40,339 nt of DNA from UHGV virus genome UHGV-0008619. The stretch is one strand, 5' to 3'. Under the pieces are notes generated by a model. That model saw only the letters and a program-made list of their open reading frames with translations. It searched no databases and was not told the DNA's origin. Positions within the stretch are counted from its first letter, which is position 1; the number at the start of each line of letters is the position of its first letter. This DNA is from a virus. The translations under genes were made by a program, and so were the position numbers. Positions 18,057 to 36,817 of the stretch are shown in pieces.

Positions 18057-18173
18057 ATGAAAATAGAAGTTTTGGCGCTAATAATAATGGGATTGATAGT
18101 GTTTGGCGTTCATGCTGTAGATCTGGACTGGAAAACGATAGCGGAAAATATAGCGTTAATGGAAATGGGATAA
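18057..18173 (+). CDS. small hydrophobic membrane peptide, 38 aa (cassette gene 4)
   Basis: AGGTGA RBS 6 nt before ATG 18057; MKIEVLALIIMGLIVFGVHAVDLDWKTIAENIALMEMG; followed by terminator. Confidence 0.4.
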   Translation: MKIEVLALIIMGLIVFGVHAVDLDWKTIAENIALMEMG

Positions 18174-33067: not shown

Positions 33068-33553
33068 TCACACCTCATCTTCTACTTCCTGAACGATGCG
33101 GGCGATCTCTTCTTTTGTGACTTCTACCTGTACGGGCGCTTCTTCCCTGTTGCCGACGATTTCCTGCGTAACGCGTTCGCCATACTTACGCGGTTGCAGT
33201 TTTGCCAATAGCCATTTACGCGTTTCAATCATCAGTTGATGGCGGCGGCATTCGTCTTTATCGATGTTCTCCGCTGCATCGGCTATATCGATGATCTCAT
33301 CAGCCAATACCTCAAAACCGATCTCCTTCGCGCGCATGTACATGTCCGAGAACTCTGGCACGTCTCTGAACCATTTGAGGATTGTTGAACGCGCAGGCAT
33401 ATCAGGCATCTTCGAAATCTTGTTAATACTATGACCGTCCGCCACCAGCTCGCAGATTTCTAATGCCTTTTCTTCGGTATAACCATGCGGACGGCCCGTC
33501 TTTTTGGCTGCTGGCTTTTTGTCTTCAGCATTTGCCTTTTTAGTGCGGGCCAT
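33068..33553 (-). CDS. terminase small subunit
   Basis: 161 aa, basic N-terminus with HTH (HGYTEEKALEICELVADGHSINKISK), immediately upstream of large subunit; AAGAGGTGA RBS. Confidence 0.7.
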   Translation of the reverse strand: MARTKKANAEDKKPAAKKTGRPHGYTEEKALEICELVADGHSINKISKMPDMPARSTILKWFRDVPEFSDMYMRAKEIGFEVLADEIIDIADAAENIDKDECRRHQLMIETRKWLLAKLQPRKYGERVTQEIVGNREEAPVQVEVTKEEIARIVQEVEDEV

Positions 33554-33563
33554 ATTTCACCTC

Positions 33564-33647
33564 TTAATATTTGTTGATGATATATACGCAAGCCACAAAA
33601 CTTGCGCAGTATGTTAATACTTCCAACCAGTCGAATAGCTCTTTCAT
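33564..33647 (-). CDS. mini-gene H: 27 aa hydrophobic peptide MKELFDWLEVLTYCASFVACVYIINKY
   Basis: ATG 33647 preceded by GAAGGG; stop TAA; single hydrophobic stretch. Confidence 0.45.
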   Translation of the reverse strand: MKELFDWLEVLTYCASFVACVYIINKY

Positions 33648-33657
33648 TGTTTACCCT

Positions 33658-33738
33658 TCACATAATAGAAAGCGCCCAGGTAATAAGGACGATAGCCAAA
33701 ACCATATAGATAAAATCTGACTCTCTCATGTTGTCCAT
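33658..33738 (-). CDS. mini-gene G: 23-26 aa hydrophobic peptide M(DNM)RESDFIYMVLAIVLITWALSIM
   Basis: ATG 33738 or 33729 (AGGATGG RBS favours 33729). Confidence 0.4.
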   Translation of the reverse strand: MDNMRESDFIYMVLAIVLITWALSIM

Positions 33739-33804
33739 CCTGCTTACGCGAAGAAAACGATAACAACTAACAGCGAACTTATAGCTATGATTAAGAAATC
33801 ACTG

Positions 33805-33879
33805 TCAGACATTGATAATAAACCCCACAATTACAACCGCTGCGATGCATACGAATAATACAGCTTCGATAGTTTCCAT
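33805..33879 (-). CDS. mini-gene F: 24 aa hydrophobic peptide METIEAVLFVCIAAVVIVGFIINV
   Basis: AGGTGA RBS 4 nt before ATG 33879. Confidence 0.45.
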   Translation of the reverse strand: METIEAVLFVCIAAVVIVGFIINV

Positions 33880-33887
33880 ATATTCAC

Positions 33888-33956
33888 CTATTGAGTCAGT
33901 GCGATCATAGTGAGAACAATTGCGACAATCAGGAAAAAGAAATCAAGCCATTTCAT
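33888..33956 (-). CDS. mini-gene E: 22 aa hydrophobic peptide MKWLDFFFLIVAIVLTMIALTQ
   Basis: ATG overlaps stop of gene D (ATGA); GGGAG RBS. Confidence 0.45.
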   Translation of the reverse strand: MKWLDFFFLIVAIVLTMIALTQ

Positions 33957-34033
33957 TTTTTAAACTCCCGATAAACATCAACAGCAATGACTACAACTAC
34001 AGCCACCAGCAATAGCATTTCGTATGCGTTCAT
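33953..34033 (-). CDS. mini-gene D: 26 aa hydrophobic peptide MNAYEMLLLVAVVVVIAVDVYREFKK
   Basis: ATG overlaps stop of gene C (ATGA coupling). Confidence 0.4.
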   Translation of the reverse strand: MNAYEMLLLVAVVVVIAVDVYREFKK

Positions 34034-34128
34034 TTGATGCTACCCATAACAAGGCCGATGATGATAATTATGGCGACAGTGCCTAACATCATTCCGCGCA
34101 TAATCGCCAGTAATTCGAATATATCCAT
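34030..34128 (-). CDS. mini-gene C: 32 aa hydrophobic peptide MDIFELLAIMRGMMLGTVAIIIIIGLVMGSIK
   Basis: AGGTGA RBS before ATG 34128. Confidence 0.45.
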   Translation of the reverse strand: MDIFELLAIMRGMMLGTVAIIIIIGLVMGSIK

Positions 34129-34136
34129 GCCGTCAC

Positions 34137-34211
34137 CTATACAACATTCTTCCACCAGAAATAGATAATGACGGCGACCAACGACCACCAGATGAGATCG
34201 TAAATATTCAT
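34137..34211 (-). CDS. mini-gene B: 24 aa hydrophobic peptide MNIYDLIWWSLVAVIIYFWWKNVV
   Basis: AAAGG RBS before ATG 34211. Confidence 0.4.
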   Translation of the reverse strand: MNIYDLIWWSLVAVIIYFWWKNVV

Positions 34212-34221
34212 GTGAATGCCT

Positions 34222-34296
34222 TTAGCTTTCAATGAATATCATGATCGCCAGCCATACAGCGACGCAGGCAGAAAGGATAATTAGCGGGTCAATCAT
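34222..34296 (-). CDS. mini-gene A: 24 aa hydrophobic peptide MIDPLIILSACVAVWLAIMIFIES
   Basis: GAGG RBS 6 nt before ATG 34296, 2 nt after stop of HExxH gene. Confidence 0.45.
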   Translation of the reverse strand: MIDPLIILSACVAVWLAIMIFIES

Positions 34297-34298
34297 AA

Positions 34299-34883
34299 TC
34301 AGCCTCGTTTAAAGCTCATCACACGCGGTACAAGCGCTTCTTTTGCTTTCGGCTTACGTTTGCCTTTCTTCGCGGTTTTTTCTTCTTCCTTCGGCTCCTC
34401 TGCCTGTTCAACTGCCTGTTCTGCTGCATCAGTCGCCTTTTCCGCCTGGTCTAATGCCTTCTCAACGACTTCAGCGGCCTGCATAGCTGCCAACTGTGCT
34501 TCATTAGACTCAGCCAGGATCGGGAAGAATGCGTCAAAGATGCGGCCCACCATGTAAGCATAAGTCTCGTTCGCCGGATGAGTTGGATCGGTGGTCGCCA
34601 CGACGCCTACATCACTTAAAACGTGGAATGTAGTGTGGGCGCATTCATGGACCAGCGTACCAAGCTCATTATCGAATACTGCGATCACGTAGAAGTTACC
34701 GCCTTTCTCGCCAGTGCAAGTAAGCGTCAATCCTCCTGCCAGTTCAAAATCAGGTTCGATTGGGATCCCTGCCTTTTCGCAAAATTCATAGAACATGTCG
34801 CGAGTCGGGCAGAAGAAAACTGTTGTATGCTCAAAGAGCGGGACTTTGAATTGAGGCAACTTAATGCCTTTACCCTTAGCCAT
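34299..34883 (-). CDS. HExxH-motif protein with Ala/Glu/Lys-rich low-complexity C-terminal tail (possible zinc metallopeptidase-like)
   Basis: 194 aa; motif LVHECAHTTFH; AGGAG RBS; C-terminal tail AAMQAAEVVEKALDQAEKATDAAEQAVEQAEEPKEEEKTAKKGKRKPKAK. Confidence 0.55.
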   Translation of the reverse strand: MAKGKGIKLPQFKVPLFEHTTVFFCPTRDMFYEFCEKAGIPIEPDFELAGGLTLTCTGEKGGNFYVIAVFDNELGTLVHECAHTTFHVLSDVGVVATTDPTHPANETYAYMVGRIFDAFFPILAESNEAQLAAMQAAEVVEKALDQAEKATDAAEQAVEQAEEPKEEEKTAKKGKRKPKAKEALVPRVMSFKRG

Positions 34884-35154
34884 CAGAATAATCTCCTGTC
34901 TGGTTTGCTTTTACTTCCTGTTTATACAGCGGCAGGAATGACATAAAACACTGAAAACGGCGCTTCATCAGTACCGTTTCCAGAATTTTATAAAATTGGT
35001 TAATGGCGCTTTCTTCTACCCAGGCAGCGCCTAACCTGTTAATGGGATGACGTGCATCCGGTATTGCGTGTTTTTGACTTTTCCGCCGTCGCTCGCGGGA
35101 AGGATTGGCCCGGTTATGGCTGGCTGGCAGAAACGGCGACACGCCAACGCGCTG

Positions 35155-35625
35155 TTATTCTTTGCGTAAGCACTGCGTTTTGATGTAGCCCTGAAGCGCG
35201 GTTATCTTCGCGTCCTTCTCTTTTAGTTGTTCTCTGAGGGATAGATAAGCCGATTCAGCGTCGGGAGTGAGTCTACAGGAGGCTCCATTAATGGTGCTGG
35301 CGGATCCGGTGGAGTCGGACACTCGCACGGGTATTGCGTTGACGCGCAGCCGGATAGTACCGTTATCAATGCCAGTGCGCAGATCGGCAATGTCAGATCT
35401 GATAGCTTTAATCTCATCGTGATACCTCTTATCAAGTTTTGACAGTTCGGCGTTTCGCTCCTTCATCTGCTGAATAGTGTTACTTGCCGTTTTCAGTGCG
35501 CCTTGCGTGGTCGTTAATTCTTCCTGTAACCTTGTCGCCTCACTCTGGTAATGGCATGTTACGGCTGTAAGGCTGGCAATGATGCAAACAACAGCGGCGA
35601 TGATTAACGTCTTCACCTTGTCCAT
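35155..35625 (-). CDS. i-spanin (Rz-like)
   Basis: N-terminal TM segment, coiled-coil periplasmic domain, embedded +1 frame lipoprotein gene. Confidence 0.75.
   Translation of the reverse strand: MDKVKTLIIAAVVCIIASLTAVTCHYQSEATRLQEELTTTQGALKTASNTIQQMKERNAELSKLDKRYHDEIKAIRSDIADLRTGIDNGTIRLRVNAIPVRVSDSTGSASTINGASCRLTPDAESAYLSLREQLKEKDAKITALQGYIKTQCLRKE
35223..35417 (-). CDS. o-spanin (Rz1-like lipoprotein), embedded in Rz
   Basis: MRLKLSDLTLPICALALITVLSGC lipobox followed by Pro-rich short mature region; AAGAGG RBS. Confidence 0.7.
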   Translation of the reverse strand: MRLKLSDLTLPICALALITVLSGCASTQYPCECPTPPDPPAPLMEPPVDSLPTLNRLIYPSENN

Positions 35626-35628
35626 GTT

Positions 35629-36135
35629 TCACCCCTCGCAACCCATCGAAGGTGCATATTCACCATAGAAAAAGTTTTCCGCCAAAATGCGAGCGGCGAT
35701 CGCTTCGTCTAGTGAGTCAAATAAACCAATAGATATACGCTTACCTTCATTGTCGGTAATTCTTACTCGCCATTTAGGCTTGCTTCGCTCTGTTTTGTGG
35801 TAGCTAACACCCCTGAATGCAGACAATGTGTGAGTGGCAATATGTTTCTTGTTTCTGCAGTTATGCGCATCATCTGTTTCTCGCAGGTTTACTATCCTGT
35901 TGTCGGTTTTTATTCCATTAATATGGTCAATGTCCTTTTCGGGCCACACTCCATAATGGAAAAACCACGCAAGGCGATGCGCTTTATATCTTCCTATGTG
36001 TATGTATCCGCTTTTATGCTTACACCCTGCTACGCTTCCGGCCTTGATTCTCCCGTGAGGACTAATCTTATAGGTGAAAATACCTGTCGCTGGATCGTAG
36101 TGTAGCTTTCGTTTTAGTTCATCATCACTTTCCAT
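35629..36135 (-). CDS. HNH homing endonuclease (HNH plus AP2-like), inserted between endolysin and spanin genes
   Basis: IKAGSVAGCKH, HRLAWFFHYGVWPEKDIDHINGIKTDNRIVNLR; paralogue of 1457..1963; overlaps both neighbours' ends. Confidence 0.85.
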   Translation of the reverse strand: MESDDELKRKLHYDPATGIFTYKISPHGRIKAGSVAGCKHKSGYIHIGRYKAHRLAWFFHYGVWPEKDIDHINGIKTDNRIVNLRETDDAHNCRNKKHIATHTLSAFRGVSYHKTERSKPKWRVRITDNEGKRISIGLFDSLDEAIAARILAENFFYGEYAPSMGCEG

Positions 36136-36616
36136 TGGTTACGCCCCATTCACATATAGCACGTTCAATATCGCGACGATTCTTTAAGCCTTGTATATAC
36201 CTCCCATTGTCATACACCCAGCGATCCATCTCCTTACACGCTCCCTTAAAGTCGCCTTTGTTTATTTTTTTTAACAAGGTTGATTTTTTGAAAGCGTCAA
36301 CCCCGATATTGTATGAAAAGCTAATTAGCGCGGCGCGTTGGTAGTCATTCATGTCAACTTTTACATAACGATCGACCGCCTTTTTGTAAACGGCTAAGTG
36401 TTTTTGTAAAAGTCTATCGCATTCATCAGGTGTGTATCTCTTACCAGGGACAACATCAGGGCCGGTTATGCCATTGCATACAGTTAGCACGCCTCCGGTA
36501 TCGTAATAAGGCTCGTAAGCCGTACCCTCAACCCATATAAGCAAAACAGATGCAATGGCTAACGTTCCACCAGCCGCCGCCTTAGTTAGTCGGTTTTTCA
36601 GCGATTGGCTAATCAT
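36125..36616 (-). CDS. SAR endolysin (T4-lysozyme-like, phage 21 R-type)
   Basis: N-terminal weakly hydrophobic Gly/Ala-rich SAR segment (AAAGGTLAIASVLLI), lysozyme-type motifs (VCNGITG, SFSYNIG...STLLKKIN, RRDIERAICEWG). Confidence 0.85.
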   Translation of the reverse strand: MISQSLKNRLTKAAAGGTLAIASVLLIWVEGTAYEPYYDTGGVLTVCNGITGPDVVPGKRYTPDECDRLLQKHLAVYKKAVDRYVKVDMNDYQRAALISFSYNIGVDAFKKSTLLKKINKGDFKGACKEMDRWVYDNGRYIQGLKNRRDIERAICEWGVTNGK

Positions 36617-36817
36617 TTACTTATTCCCCATTCGCGCGTCGTGTTCCTCTTGCGCTCGCTTATTCTCCTGTGATTTGAAGTAATAATTAACGGCAAATGT
36701 GCCTACGGTTGATAAGATACCCACAAAGACGGCAATGTCATTGATGGTTATCGCGCCGAAAAAAGCAGTTACGGCCCCAGTCACATACGCACACGCCTCC
36801 CGCATTCTGTCGAACAT
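36617..36817 (-). CDS. class II holin (pinholin-like)
   Basis: 66 aa, two TM segments, dual Met start (M1/M5), charged C-terminus; immediately upstream of SAR endolysin. Confidence 0.7.
   Translation of the reverse strand: MFDRMREACAYVTGAVTAFFGAITINDIAVFVGILSTVGTFAVNYYFKSQENKRAQEEHDARMGNK

Follow-up and report, generated by a model that had tools for sequence, protein, structure and literature searches.

Several kinds of tiny membrane peptide are known from bacteria and their phages. Bacterial membrane peptides of 30-31 amino acids (aa), such as MgtS (31 aa) and MgtR (30 aa), regulate larger membrane proteins, and bacterial small membrane proteins whose action is known bind such larger proteins (PMC12648545). 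In Enterobacteriaceae, intergenic small open reading frames (smORFs) of 15-70 codons are under purifying selection; most of their products are hydrophobic or transmembrane, and the ORFs often run in the same direction as the flanking genes (PMC11188072). Here we describe an array of nine mini-genes encoding hydrophobic peptides, located between the gene for a protein with an HExxH motif (the HExxH gene) and the gene for the terminase small subunit (terS) in the UHGV virus genome UHGV-0008619. The stretch of DNA analyzed, referred to below as the window, is 40,339 nt long.

The array peptides resemble MgtS, MgtR, AcrZ, KdpF and YohP in being no longer than 50 aa, in having one helix with few flanking residues and no enzymatic domain, and in having been missed by annotation. 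Their size, the single predicted helix and the evidence that they are real genes place them in the functional class of small membrane proteins. The bacterial examples, however, are chromosomal, usually single and either next to or co-regulated with their target, whereas the phage arrays contain nine to thirteen head-to-tail genes of a late operon, distantly related to one another or unrelated, with no identifiable target nearby, and no sequence similarity between the two groups was detected. Type I toxins such as Ibs, Ldr, Hok and TisB are also tiny, very hydrophobic single helices, and the ibs and ldr loci carry tandem paralogues. Each of these toxins has its own promoter, a structured 5' untranslated region (UTR) and an antisense RNA, whereas the phage genes form a single operon with translational coupling. 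Holins and antiholins are late phage proteins of the inner membrane encoded near lysis genes, as predicted here for the array peptides, but holins have ~60-150 aa, carry a charged C-terminal domain and are encoded beside the endolysin; the mini-peptides are two to three times smaller. The Pf3 coat protein (44 aa), a YidC substrate that inserts N-out/C-in without a signal peptide, shares the short single span, the acidic N-terminal tail and the basic C-terminus. It is, however, a structural protein of an inovirus virion, and nothing indicates a structural role for the array peptides.

The enterobacterial smORFs are likewise unannotated, selected, mostly hydrophobic and co-directed with their flanking genes, but the study that describes them mentions prophages, tandem repeats and terminases 0 times and reports no array of 9-13 genes with cassette exchange (PMC11188072). 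A 29-aa Vequintavirus protein is a direct homologue of one family of array peptides (F12, see below); unlike the array genes, its gene stands alone among those for soluble hypothetical proteins, in a virulent phage of 135 kb. Tiny phage membrane peptides and selected hydrophobic enterobacterial smORFs (PMC11188072) are known kinds, to which Fremin et al. 2022 is also relevant. What we did not find described in the literature searched is a dense, translationally coupled array of 9-13 genes that combines conserved order and modular content with the exchange of cassettes at exact gene boundaries and with a cassette common to virulent phages. An earlier description of the window, referred to here as the original prediction, had called the array unfamiliar, and we agree, as none of such size is described in that literature.

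The interval from the stop codon of the HExxH gene to the start of terS measures 745 bases (33554-34298) and is read on the minus strand. As had been stated, it holds no ORF of at least 60 aa on either strand, the longest being a 52-aa GTG extension of one mini-gene. Nine ATG-initiated mini-ORFs of 22-32 aa lie in mixed frames on the minus strand and cover 91% of the stretch (Table 1). The original prediction had correctly described consecutive, ATG-initiated mini-ORFs of this size, strand and mixed framing, but had counted eight. Adjacent genes are 5-10 nt apart except where they overlap. The two ATGA stop/start overlaps that had been reported are present (at 34033 and 33956), and a third overlap of 8 nt (ATGTCTGA), which joins mini-genes 6 and 7, had been missed. 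Mini-gene 8 has an upstream in-frame ATG at 33738 that would add MDN, with a duplex energy to the anti-Shine-Dalgarno (anti-SD) sequence of only -0.6 kcal/mol, and its relatives begin at MRESDF; the second ATG, at 33729 (MRESDF...), is therefore most likely the start. The last gene of the array ends 10 nt short of the terS start. The earlier observation is thus real, with its count corrected, and we regard it as partly confirmed.

We compared the window with 53 related loci (54 loci in all). The pooled ratio of nonsynonymous to synonymous change (pN/pS) in the related loci was 0.24 in the proposed frames, versus 0.92 and 1.50 in the other two frames; it ranged from 0.08 to 0.36 across all 17 families tested, and divergence at synonymous sites was high (pS 0.28). 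Start, frame and length were kept in 321 of 328 homologous copies of the nine window genes (98%). Three of the genes (F00, F01 and F03) are near-identical in a relative with an HExxH protein just 60% identical. Every start in the array has a Shine-Dalgarno (SD) site or overlaps the preceding stop, and the anti-SD duplex energies of all nine starts lie between -3.2 and -6.9 kcal/mol (mean ~-4.8), compared to a window background of -1.9. In 2000 dinucleotide shuffles of the stretch, hydrophobic ATG-initiated ORFs of at least 20 aa averaged 1.4 with a maximum of 6, and nine were reached in none (0/2000). No hydrophobic ORFs of at least 20 aa occur on the antisense strand of the stretch, and no comparable cluster of mini-ORFs was found elsewhere in the 40-kb window. 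The substitution patterns show that the mini-ORFs behave as protein-coding genes under purifying selection on their amino-acid sequence, and the original prediction of genuine mini-genes for single-pass hydrophobic peptides is borne out by the conserved frames and the intact copies. Outside the array, a lone 38-aa hydrophobic mini-ORF (MKIEVLALIIMGLIVFGVHAV...) with an SD-like motif is present at 18057-18173 on the plus strand of the window.

Base composition offers a competing explanation, in which the stretch would be T-rich spacer DNA, a site that acts in cis in packaging or regulation, or a structured RNA, with ORFs as a by-product. The sense strand is 35% T, which favors hydrophobic codons, and the hydrophobicity of intergenic smORFs tracks AT content (Fesenko et al., PMC11188072). 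Composition-matched shuffles never reproduced the array, however, and the strong frame-specific excess of synonymous change, the 98% of copies that are intact and the mosaic breakpoints that fall exactly at gene boundaries (see below) argue against a by-product. An Rfam scan returned no family above threshold (the sole match, an S15 leader with E 0.11, was far under the gathering score), and the fold of the 745-nt RNA was no more stable than those of shuffled sequences (minimum free energy [MFE] z-score +1.23). Neither nucleotide-only conservation nor a structured RNA, two of the findings that the original prediction had set against itself, was observed; conservation is at the protein level. 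Judged from these comparisons, the non-coding reading appears largely refuted, and we give it almost no weight. A related idea, that the genes form a translational relay that merely tunes terS, was excluded by the strong SD site of terS itself and by the amino-acid-level selection on the peptides.

The peptides share an architecture much as originally described, with an acidic or aromatic residue near the N-terminus, an uncharged core and a short tail that is neutral or basic. Across the ~25 families recognized in the related loci, the core comprises 13-27 uncharged residues with a mean hydropathy of 1.8-3.6. The N-terminal flank is net negative in 19 of 25 families, and the C-terminal flank (0-14 residues) is net neutral or basic except in F00 and F18. 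Based on hydropathy windows and charge distribution, the peptides (no longer than 50 aa) have one predicted transmembrane helix. Because of the acidic N-terminal and the neutral or basic C-terminal flanks, the positive-inside rule predicts one membrane span oriented N-out/C-in, and we infer that the peptides insert into the inner membrane in this way. Invariant GxxxG-type motifs are found in F04, F08, F09 and F12; the F08 peptide of the window (mini-gene 3) has two GxxxG motifs. Codon 11 of the window copy of F08 (34098-34100, minus strand) encodes Arg (MDIFELLAIMRGMM...), which places a charge in the N-terminal part of the hydrophobic helix; the commonest variants in relatives have Cys, and a few have Phe, at this position.

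In all 54 loci the array is flanked by the HExxH gene and terS, with the genes co-oriented, and the same arrangement is seen in each metagenome contig that shows the flanks. The gaps in the related loci range from 318 to 1154 bp and hold 3-13 hydrophobic mini-ORFs on the same strand. Clustering of their products gave the ~25 families, of 20-47 residues, which keep a collinear order but vary in presence and absence, such that 40 distinct array compositions occur among the 54 loci between flanks that are 80-99% identical. One relative, L013 (IMGVR_UViG_3300045988_063525), has F04 and F00 fused at slots 2-3 in one 60-aa two-helix ORF. The possibility that F10 and F11 are mutually exclusive alleles held in the 54 loci and was refuted by two metagenome loci (L072 and L079) that carry both.

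The original prediction had viewed the genes as diverged paralogues. Several families are indeed related to one another (F03/F17, F01/F24/F15, F10/F11 with a weaker link to F02, F09/F16 with a weaker link to F14, and F07/F22), with z-scores of 5-12 against shuffled sequences. Within the window, F02 and F10 are linked (z 6.2) and F01-F07 and F06-F10 are weak pairs. The modest z-scores are inflated, as shuffling destroys the polar-then-hydrophobic layout that all peptides share, and for the remaining families paralogy is inseparable from this common architecture. By these similarity scores the paralogy claim is partly supported: it appears to hold for some of the genes, and the others do not allow a decision.

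When the same family follows a different neighbor in two loci, upstream identity is lost within 0-14 nt of the ATG in almost every comparison. The loss of identity so close to the start codon marks mosaic joints at gene boundaries, and these alignments show that each mini-gene behaves as its own cassette, with gain, loss and exchange occurring precisely at those boundaries. F12, which is absent from the window and occupies the first array slot in 13 relatives, extends this pattern to other phages. It differs by one residue from the product of the lone 29-aa gene of Vequintavirus (rV5-like) phages, with 96.7% nucleotide identity; this gene is JeffSchatz bas55_0158 (MZ501082.1; L055:2507-2596) and is found in ~90 other Vequintavirus records, and it has no HExxH neighbor. 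The GAGGCTGATT ribosome-binding junction is part of the common segment, and in the temperate phages it occurs again at the cassette's 3' end. This likeness suggests that a ~90-bp gene was recently transferred horizontally between temperate and virulent coliphages. Because F12 stands alone in Vequintavirus, single mini-genes arguably work alone and move between unrelated phages. Exchange at exact boundaries, including that of the Vequintavirus cassette, means that genes of ~70-90 bp can be units of horizontal transfer.

The region matches temperate E. coli phages of the mEp021 group, namely mEp021, mEp044, mEp554, mEp010, mEp515, mEp013 and MagusPhagus, and prophages that match it occur in 35 of 5426 complete E. 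coli genomes. Phages of the mEpimmI group are Nus-dependent, non-lambdoid and reported to be prevalent in the human gut (PMC11893012). By these matches the phage of the window is a temperate member of the mEpimmI (mEp021-like) group of E. coli, and the lambdoid label of the original prediction is not supported. Patterns back-translated from F03 and F01, the two best-conserved genes, had 0 matches in 100,044 species-representative genomes. In metagenomes the F03 pattern retrieved 20 contigs, all from the same phage group, several explicitly from the human gut and many of ~52-54 kb; the HExxH gene was visible in 19 of these and terS in 18, and none had a differing context. Distant relatives of the Sf6-type terS (37-47% identity) have no upstream array, so the array is not general to Sf6-type terminases. 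Where a source is named, homologues of the HExxH protein and of terS come exclusively from E. coli down to an identity of ~50%. When the concatenated peptides were searched against GenBank phages and plasmids by tblastn, they matched only mEpimmI phages, apart from the F12 match in Vequintavirus. A related-locus search with the concatenated peptides gave only 12 contigs that were already known, and most of its patterns spanned peptide junctions. On this distribution, the array is a hallmark of one E. coli phage group.

Standard annotation does not reveal these genes. In most genomes PGAP/RefSeq leaves the array without any annotation, some of its ORFs are called as hypothetical proteins by PHANOTATE and Pharokka, and the report on mEpimmI genomes makes no mention of transmembrane peptides, small ORFs or the terminase region (PMC11893012). 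An exact look-up in 15 billion proteins found only F01 of the nine peptides, in a single JGI record. A protein search with the concatenated peptides returned five 'proteins' of 139-176 aa (P0211-P0215, from short ENA/Logan contigs) in which TGA is read as Trp; these are artefacts of metagenome gene calling, which would hide mini-genes in protein databases. About 10% of the genes in a gut-prevalent coliphage group (PMC11893012) are invisible to standard annotation. With ~25 families, clear selection signatures and presence/absence variants, the array offers an exceptionally clean natural system for the study of microproteins, and cultured array-bearing phages exist in E. coli K-12 (mEp021, mEp044 and others).

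Searches of Pfam, NCBIfam, PHROGs and PADLOC returned nothing for the nine peptides up to E 10, and the defense profiles of PADLOC matched neither the peptides nor the HExxH protein. Promoter or terminator signals above those in shuffled sequences were absent within the array and at its 3' end; the array has the presence/absence polymorphism of a phage moron without its own promoter and terminator. A strong terminator-like hairpin lies upstream of the HExxH gene (Table 1). This hairpin and the lack of internal signals would place the array most simply in an antiterminated late transcript together with the packaging genes.

We propose, with roughly even confidence, that the nine genes form a polycistronic late-operon array encoding microproteins that are expressed late, reside in the inner membrane and act one by one on membrane targets. 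The mini-genes would be expressed solely upon read-through of the upstream terminator by late transcription, and the peptides would build up in the inner membrane late in lytic growth. Each peptide alone would then make helix-helix contact with a host or phage membrane protein, in the manner of MgtS, MgtR and AcrZ, and would serve as an accessory fitness or conflict factor rather than as a core part of lysis or packaging; example roles would be the blocking of membrane-bound abortive-infection effectors, the exclusion of competing phages and the tuning of lysis timing. The independent accessory role, which is an unproven part of this proposal, is suggested by the turnover of array composition, the cassette in virulent phages, the lysis cassette that is complete without the array and the precedent of 30-aa peptides.

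Several points weigh against this proposal. Membrane insertion and topology are predictions from hydropathy and charge rules. Four or five families (F00, F01, F02, F03 and F04) are near-universal, which would fit a core role equally well. Conserved positions do not cluster on one face of the helix as a specific binding surface predicts (p<0.05 in 2 of 13 families), and helical periodicity of conservation was not significant overall. A comparison of the array genes present with the alleles of holin, endolysin and Rz showed no co-variation but carried little information. Finally, proton leakage through the peptides would bring lysis forward in a phage with a signal-anchor-release (SAR) endolysin, which keeps lysis timing among the candidate roles.

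A bolder form of the proposal, which we consider possible but improbable, is that the array is a phage 'arsenal locus' of interchangeable transmembrane helices, each neutralizing a different membrane protein of the host or of a rival phage. Proposed targets may include ion-channel or pore effectors of abortive infection, DNA-entry machinery and membrane proteases, and the locus may be a membrane-embedded counterpart of anti-defense gene islands. Its specificities may arise by duplication and divergence and spread among temperate and virulent coliphages as ~80-bp cassettes. Should the peptides indeed act on membrane proteins of the host or of rivals, every one of them would amount to a minimal and transferable inhibitor of some membrane process.

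The main live rival to accessory peptides acting one by one is that they modulate lysis timing alongside a pinholin-type holin and a SAR endolysin, shifting the trigger either by binding the holin helix (antiholin-like) or by slow loss of proton-motive force. Support comes from the position of the array, ~0.9 kb downstream of Rz/Rz1 in one late region with them, from the hydrophobic SAR-like segment at the N-terminus of the endolysin and from the GxxxG helix-packing motifs of several peptides. Release of SAR endolysins depends on membrane potential. However, the terminator hairpin and the HExxH gene lie between the array and a lysis cassette that is complete without it, the holin is ~97% conserved against 40 array compositions with no association between the array and lysis-gene alleles seen, and no holin or antiholin family matched; we consider this explanation unlikely. 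The original prediction had likened the peptides to type I toxins or holins, and membership of either class was not upheld. PHROG and Pfam holin profiles matched none of the nine peptides, which have 22-32 aa, C-terminal flanks of 0-8 residues and genes that are not next to that of the endolysin, and a canonical holin is encoded elsewhere (Table 1). As type I toxin-like or Hok-like killers, the peptides would depolarize the membrane for abortive infection or host shut-off. The tandem paralogues of toxin loci and the small hydrophobic helix would fit, with a size and extreme hydrophobicity like those of IbsC (19 aa) and others (PMC12648545). Against this, no type I toxin family in Pfam or NCBIfam matched up to E 10, no antitoxin RNA family in Rfam matched the array, and antisense promoter-like sites numbered 4 versus 7.2 expected by chance. 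The genes are 5-10 nt apart or overlapping within one operon, with no sign of the antisense RNA or independent transcription of such toxins, and this tight packing leaves no room for individual regulatory 5' UTRs. Nine co-expressed toxins beside a SAR endolysin would also be expected to lyse the cell prematurely, and the toxin reading seems to us quite improbable.

Less probable still are precursors of ribosomally synthesized and post-translationally modified peptides (RiPPs) or bacteriocin-like peptides processed by the adjacent HExxH enzyme. Tandem short peptides do follow directly after a protein with an invariant HExxH...NE motif, and that protein matches an HExxH peptide-hydroxylase model very weakly and without significance (E 1.4). 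The peptides, however, have no leader/core organization and no conserved modification residues, and they are uncharged membrane helices that are neither cationic nor amphipathic. Genes for export, immunity or other maturation steps are absent, with the terminase coming next; the HExxH protein falls outside every peptidase and RiPP family or fold searched, and F12 occurs in Vequintavirus with no such neighbor. Nothing speaks for the bacteriocin-like family that the original prediction had listed among its candidates, and its interpretation as a whole is partly supported.

Table 1. Coordinates of the mini-genes and neighboring features in the window. SD, duplex energy in kcal/mol; intact, homologous copies with start, frame and length kept.
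Feature	Position	Strand	Length (aa)	Sequence	Details
Mini-gene 1 (F00)	34222-34296	-	24	MIDPLIILSACVAVWLAIMIFIES	SD -5.9; starts 2 nt past HExxH stop codon; in 50/54 loci; pN/pS 0.31; intact 48/48
Mini-gene 2 (F07)	34137-34211	-	24	MNIYDLIWWSLVAVIIYFWWKNVV	SD -3.2; pN/pS 0.31; intact 33/35
Mini-gene 3 (F08)	34030-34128	-	32	MDIFELLAIMRGMMLGTVAIIIIIGLVMGSIK	SD AGGTGA, -3.7; pN/pS 0.12; intact 22/23
Mini-gene 4 (F01)	33953-34033	-	26	MNAYEMLLLVAVVVVIAVDVYREFKK	ATGA start on previous stop; pN/pS 0.24; intact 49/49
Mini-gene 5 (F02)	33888-33956	-	22	MKWLDFFFLIVAIVLTMIALTQ	ATGA start on previous stop; SD GGGAG, -6.9; pN/pS 0.13; intact 50/50
Mini-gene 6 (F05)	33805-33879	-	24	METIEAVLFVCIAAVVIVGFIINV	SD AGGTGA, -3.7; pN/pS 0.36; intact 22/22
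Mini-gene 7 (F06)	33744-33812	-	22	MSDSDFLIIAISSLLVVIVFFA	8-nt overlap with gene 6; SD -5.4; pN/pS 0.31; intact 36/40; ACG instead of ATG in four relatives
Mini-gene 8 (F10)	33658-33729	-	23	MRESDFIYMVLAIVLITWALSIM	SD -6.5; pN/pS 0.29; intact 16/16
Mini-gene 9 (F03)	33564-33647	-	27	MKELFDWLEVLTYCASFVACVYIINKY	SD -4.6; pN/pS 0.08 (lowest); intact 45/45
Terminase small subunit (Sf6 type)	33068-33553	-			PF20901, E 4.5e-37; own SD -7.1
HExxH protein	34299-34883	-	194		phrog_1365, E 7e-31; immediately 5' of array in all 54 loci
Terminator-like hairpin	34942-34992	-			A and U tracts flanking; MFE -22.8 kcal/mol, z -5.84; 0/200 shuffles as stable
Rz	35155-35625				Embedded out-of-frame lipoprotein ORF
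Lipoprotein ORF, expected Rz1 o-spanin	35223-35435	-			Lipobox LSGC; inside Rz; absent from large-ORF list
HNH/AP2-type endonuclease-like gene	35629-36135	-	168		Between endolysin and Rz
Endolysin	36125-36616	-		AAAGGTLAIASVLLIWV (N-terminus)	Hydrophobic SAR-like N-terminus
Holin, canonical	36617-36817		66		Abuts endolysin; ~97% conserved among relatives

The HExxH protein has the invariant residues H79, E80, H83, N105 and E106, with gluzincin-like spacing. An AlphaFold2 (AF2) model (predicted local distance difference test [pLDDT] score 76.6) has a confident alpha/beta core and a disordered, Lys/Arg-rich basic tail. No match to a Pfam family, a PDB sequence or a peptidase or RiPP family was found, and the best fold match in the PDB had an E of 0.08; without a PDB sequence or fold match, the protein gives no functional lead for the array. 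One homologue from a metagenome-assembled genome is labeled 'PolyVal metallopeptidase'.

The hairpin separates Rz from the HExxH gene, whose start is ~60 nt downstream. It resembles a terminator in either direction and was missed by a simple terminator scan, and the homologous site is annotated 'terminator' in mEp021 (MH706966). Farther upstream, the gene content indicates a lysis cassette that is complete without the array, with a holin, a SAR-type endolysin and Rz/Rz1. The endolysin of the window is a rare allele, as at least 80% identity was found in only 2 related loci and the others have ~55%. The HNH gene was found by tblastn in 3 of 53 related loci, with a median identity of 37% and one match of 100%, and is present also in L054; it looks like a homing-endonuclease insertion polymorphism within the lysis cassette.

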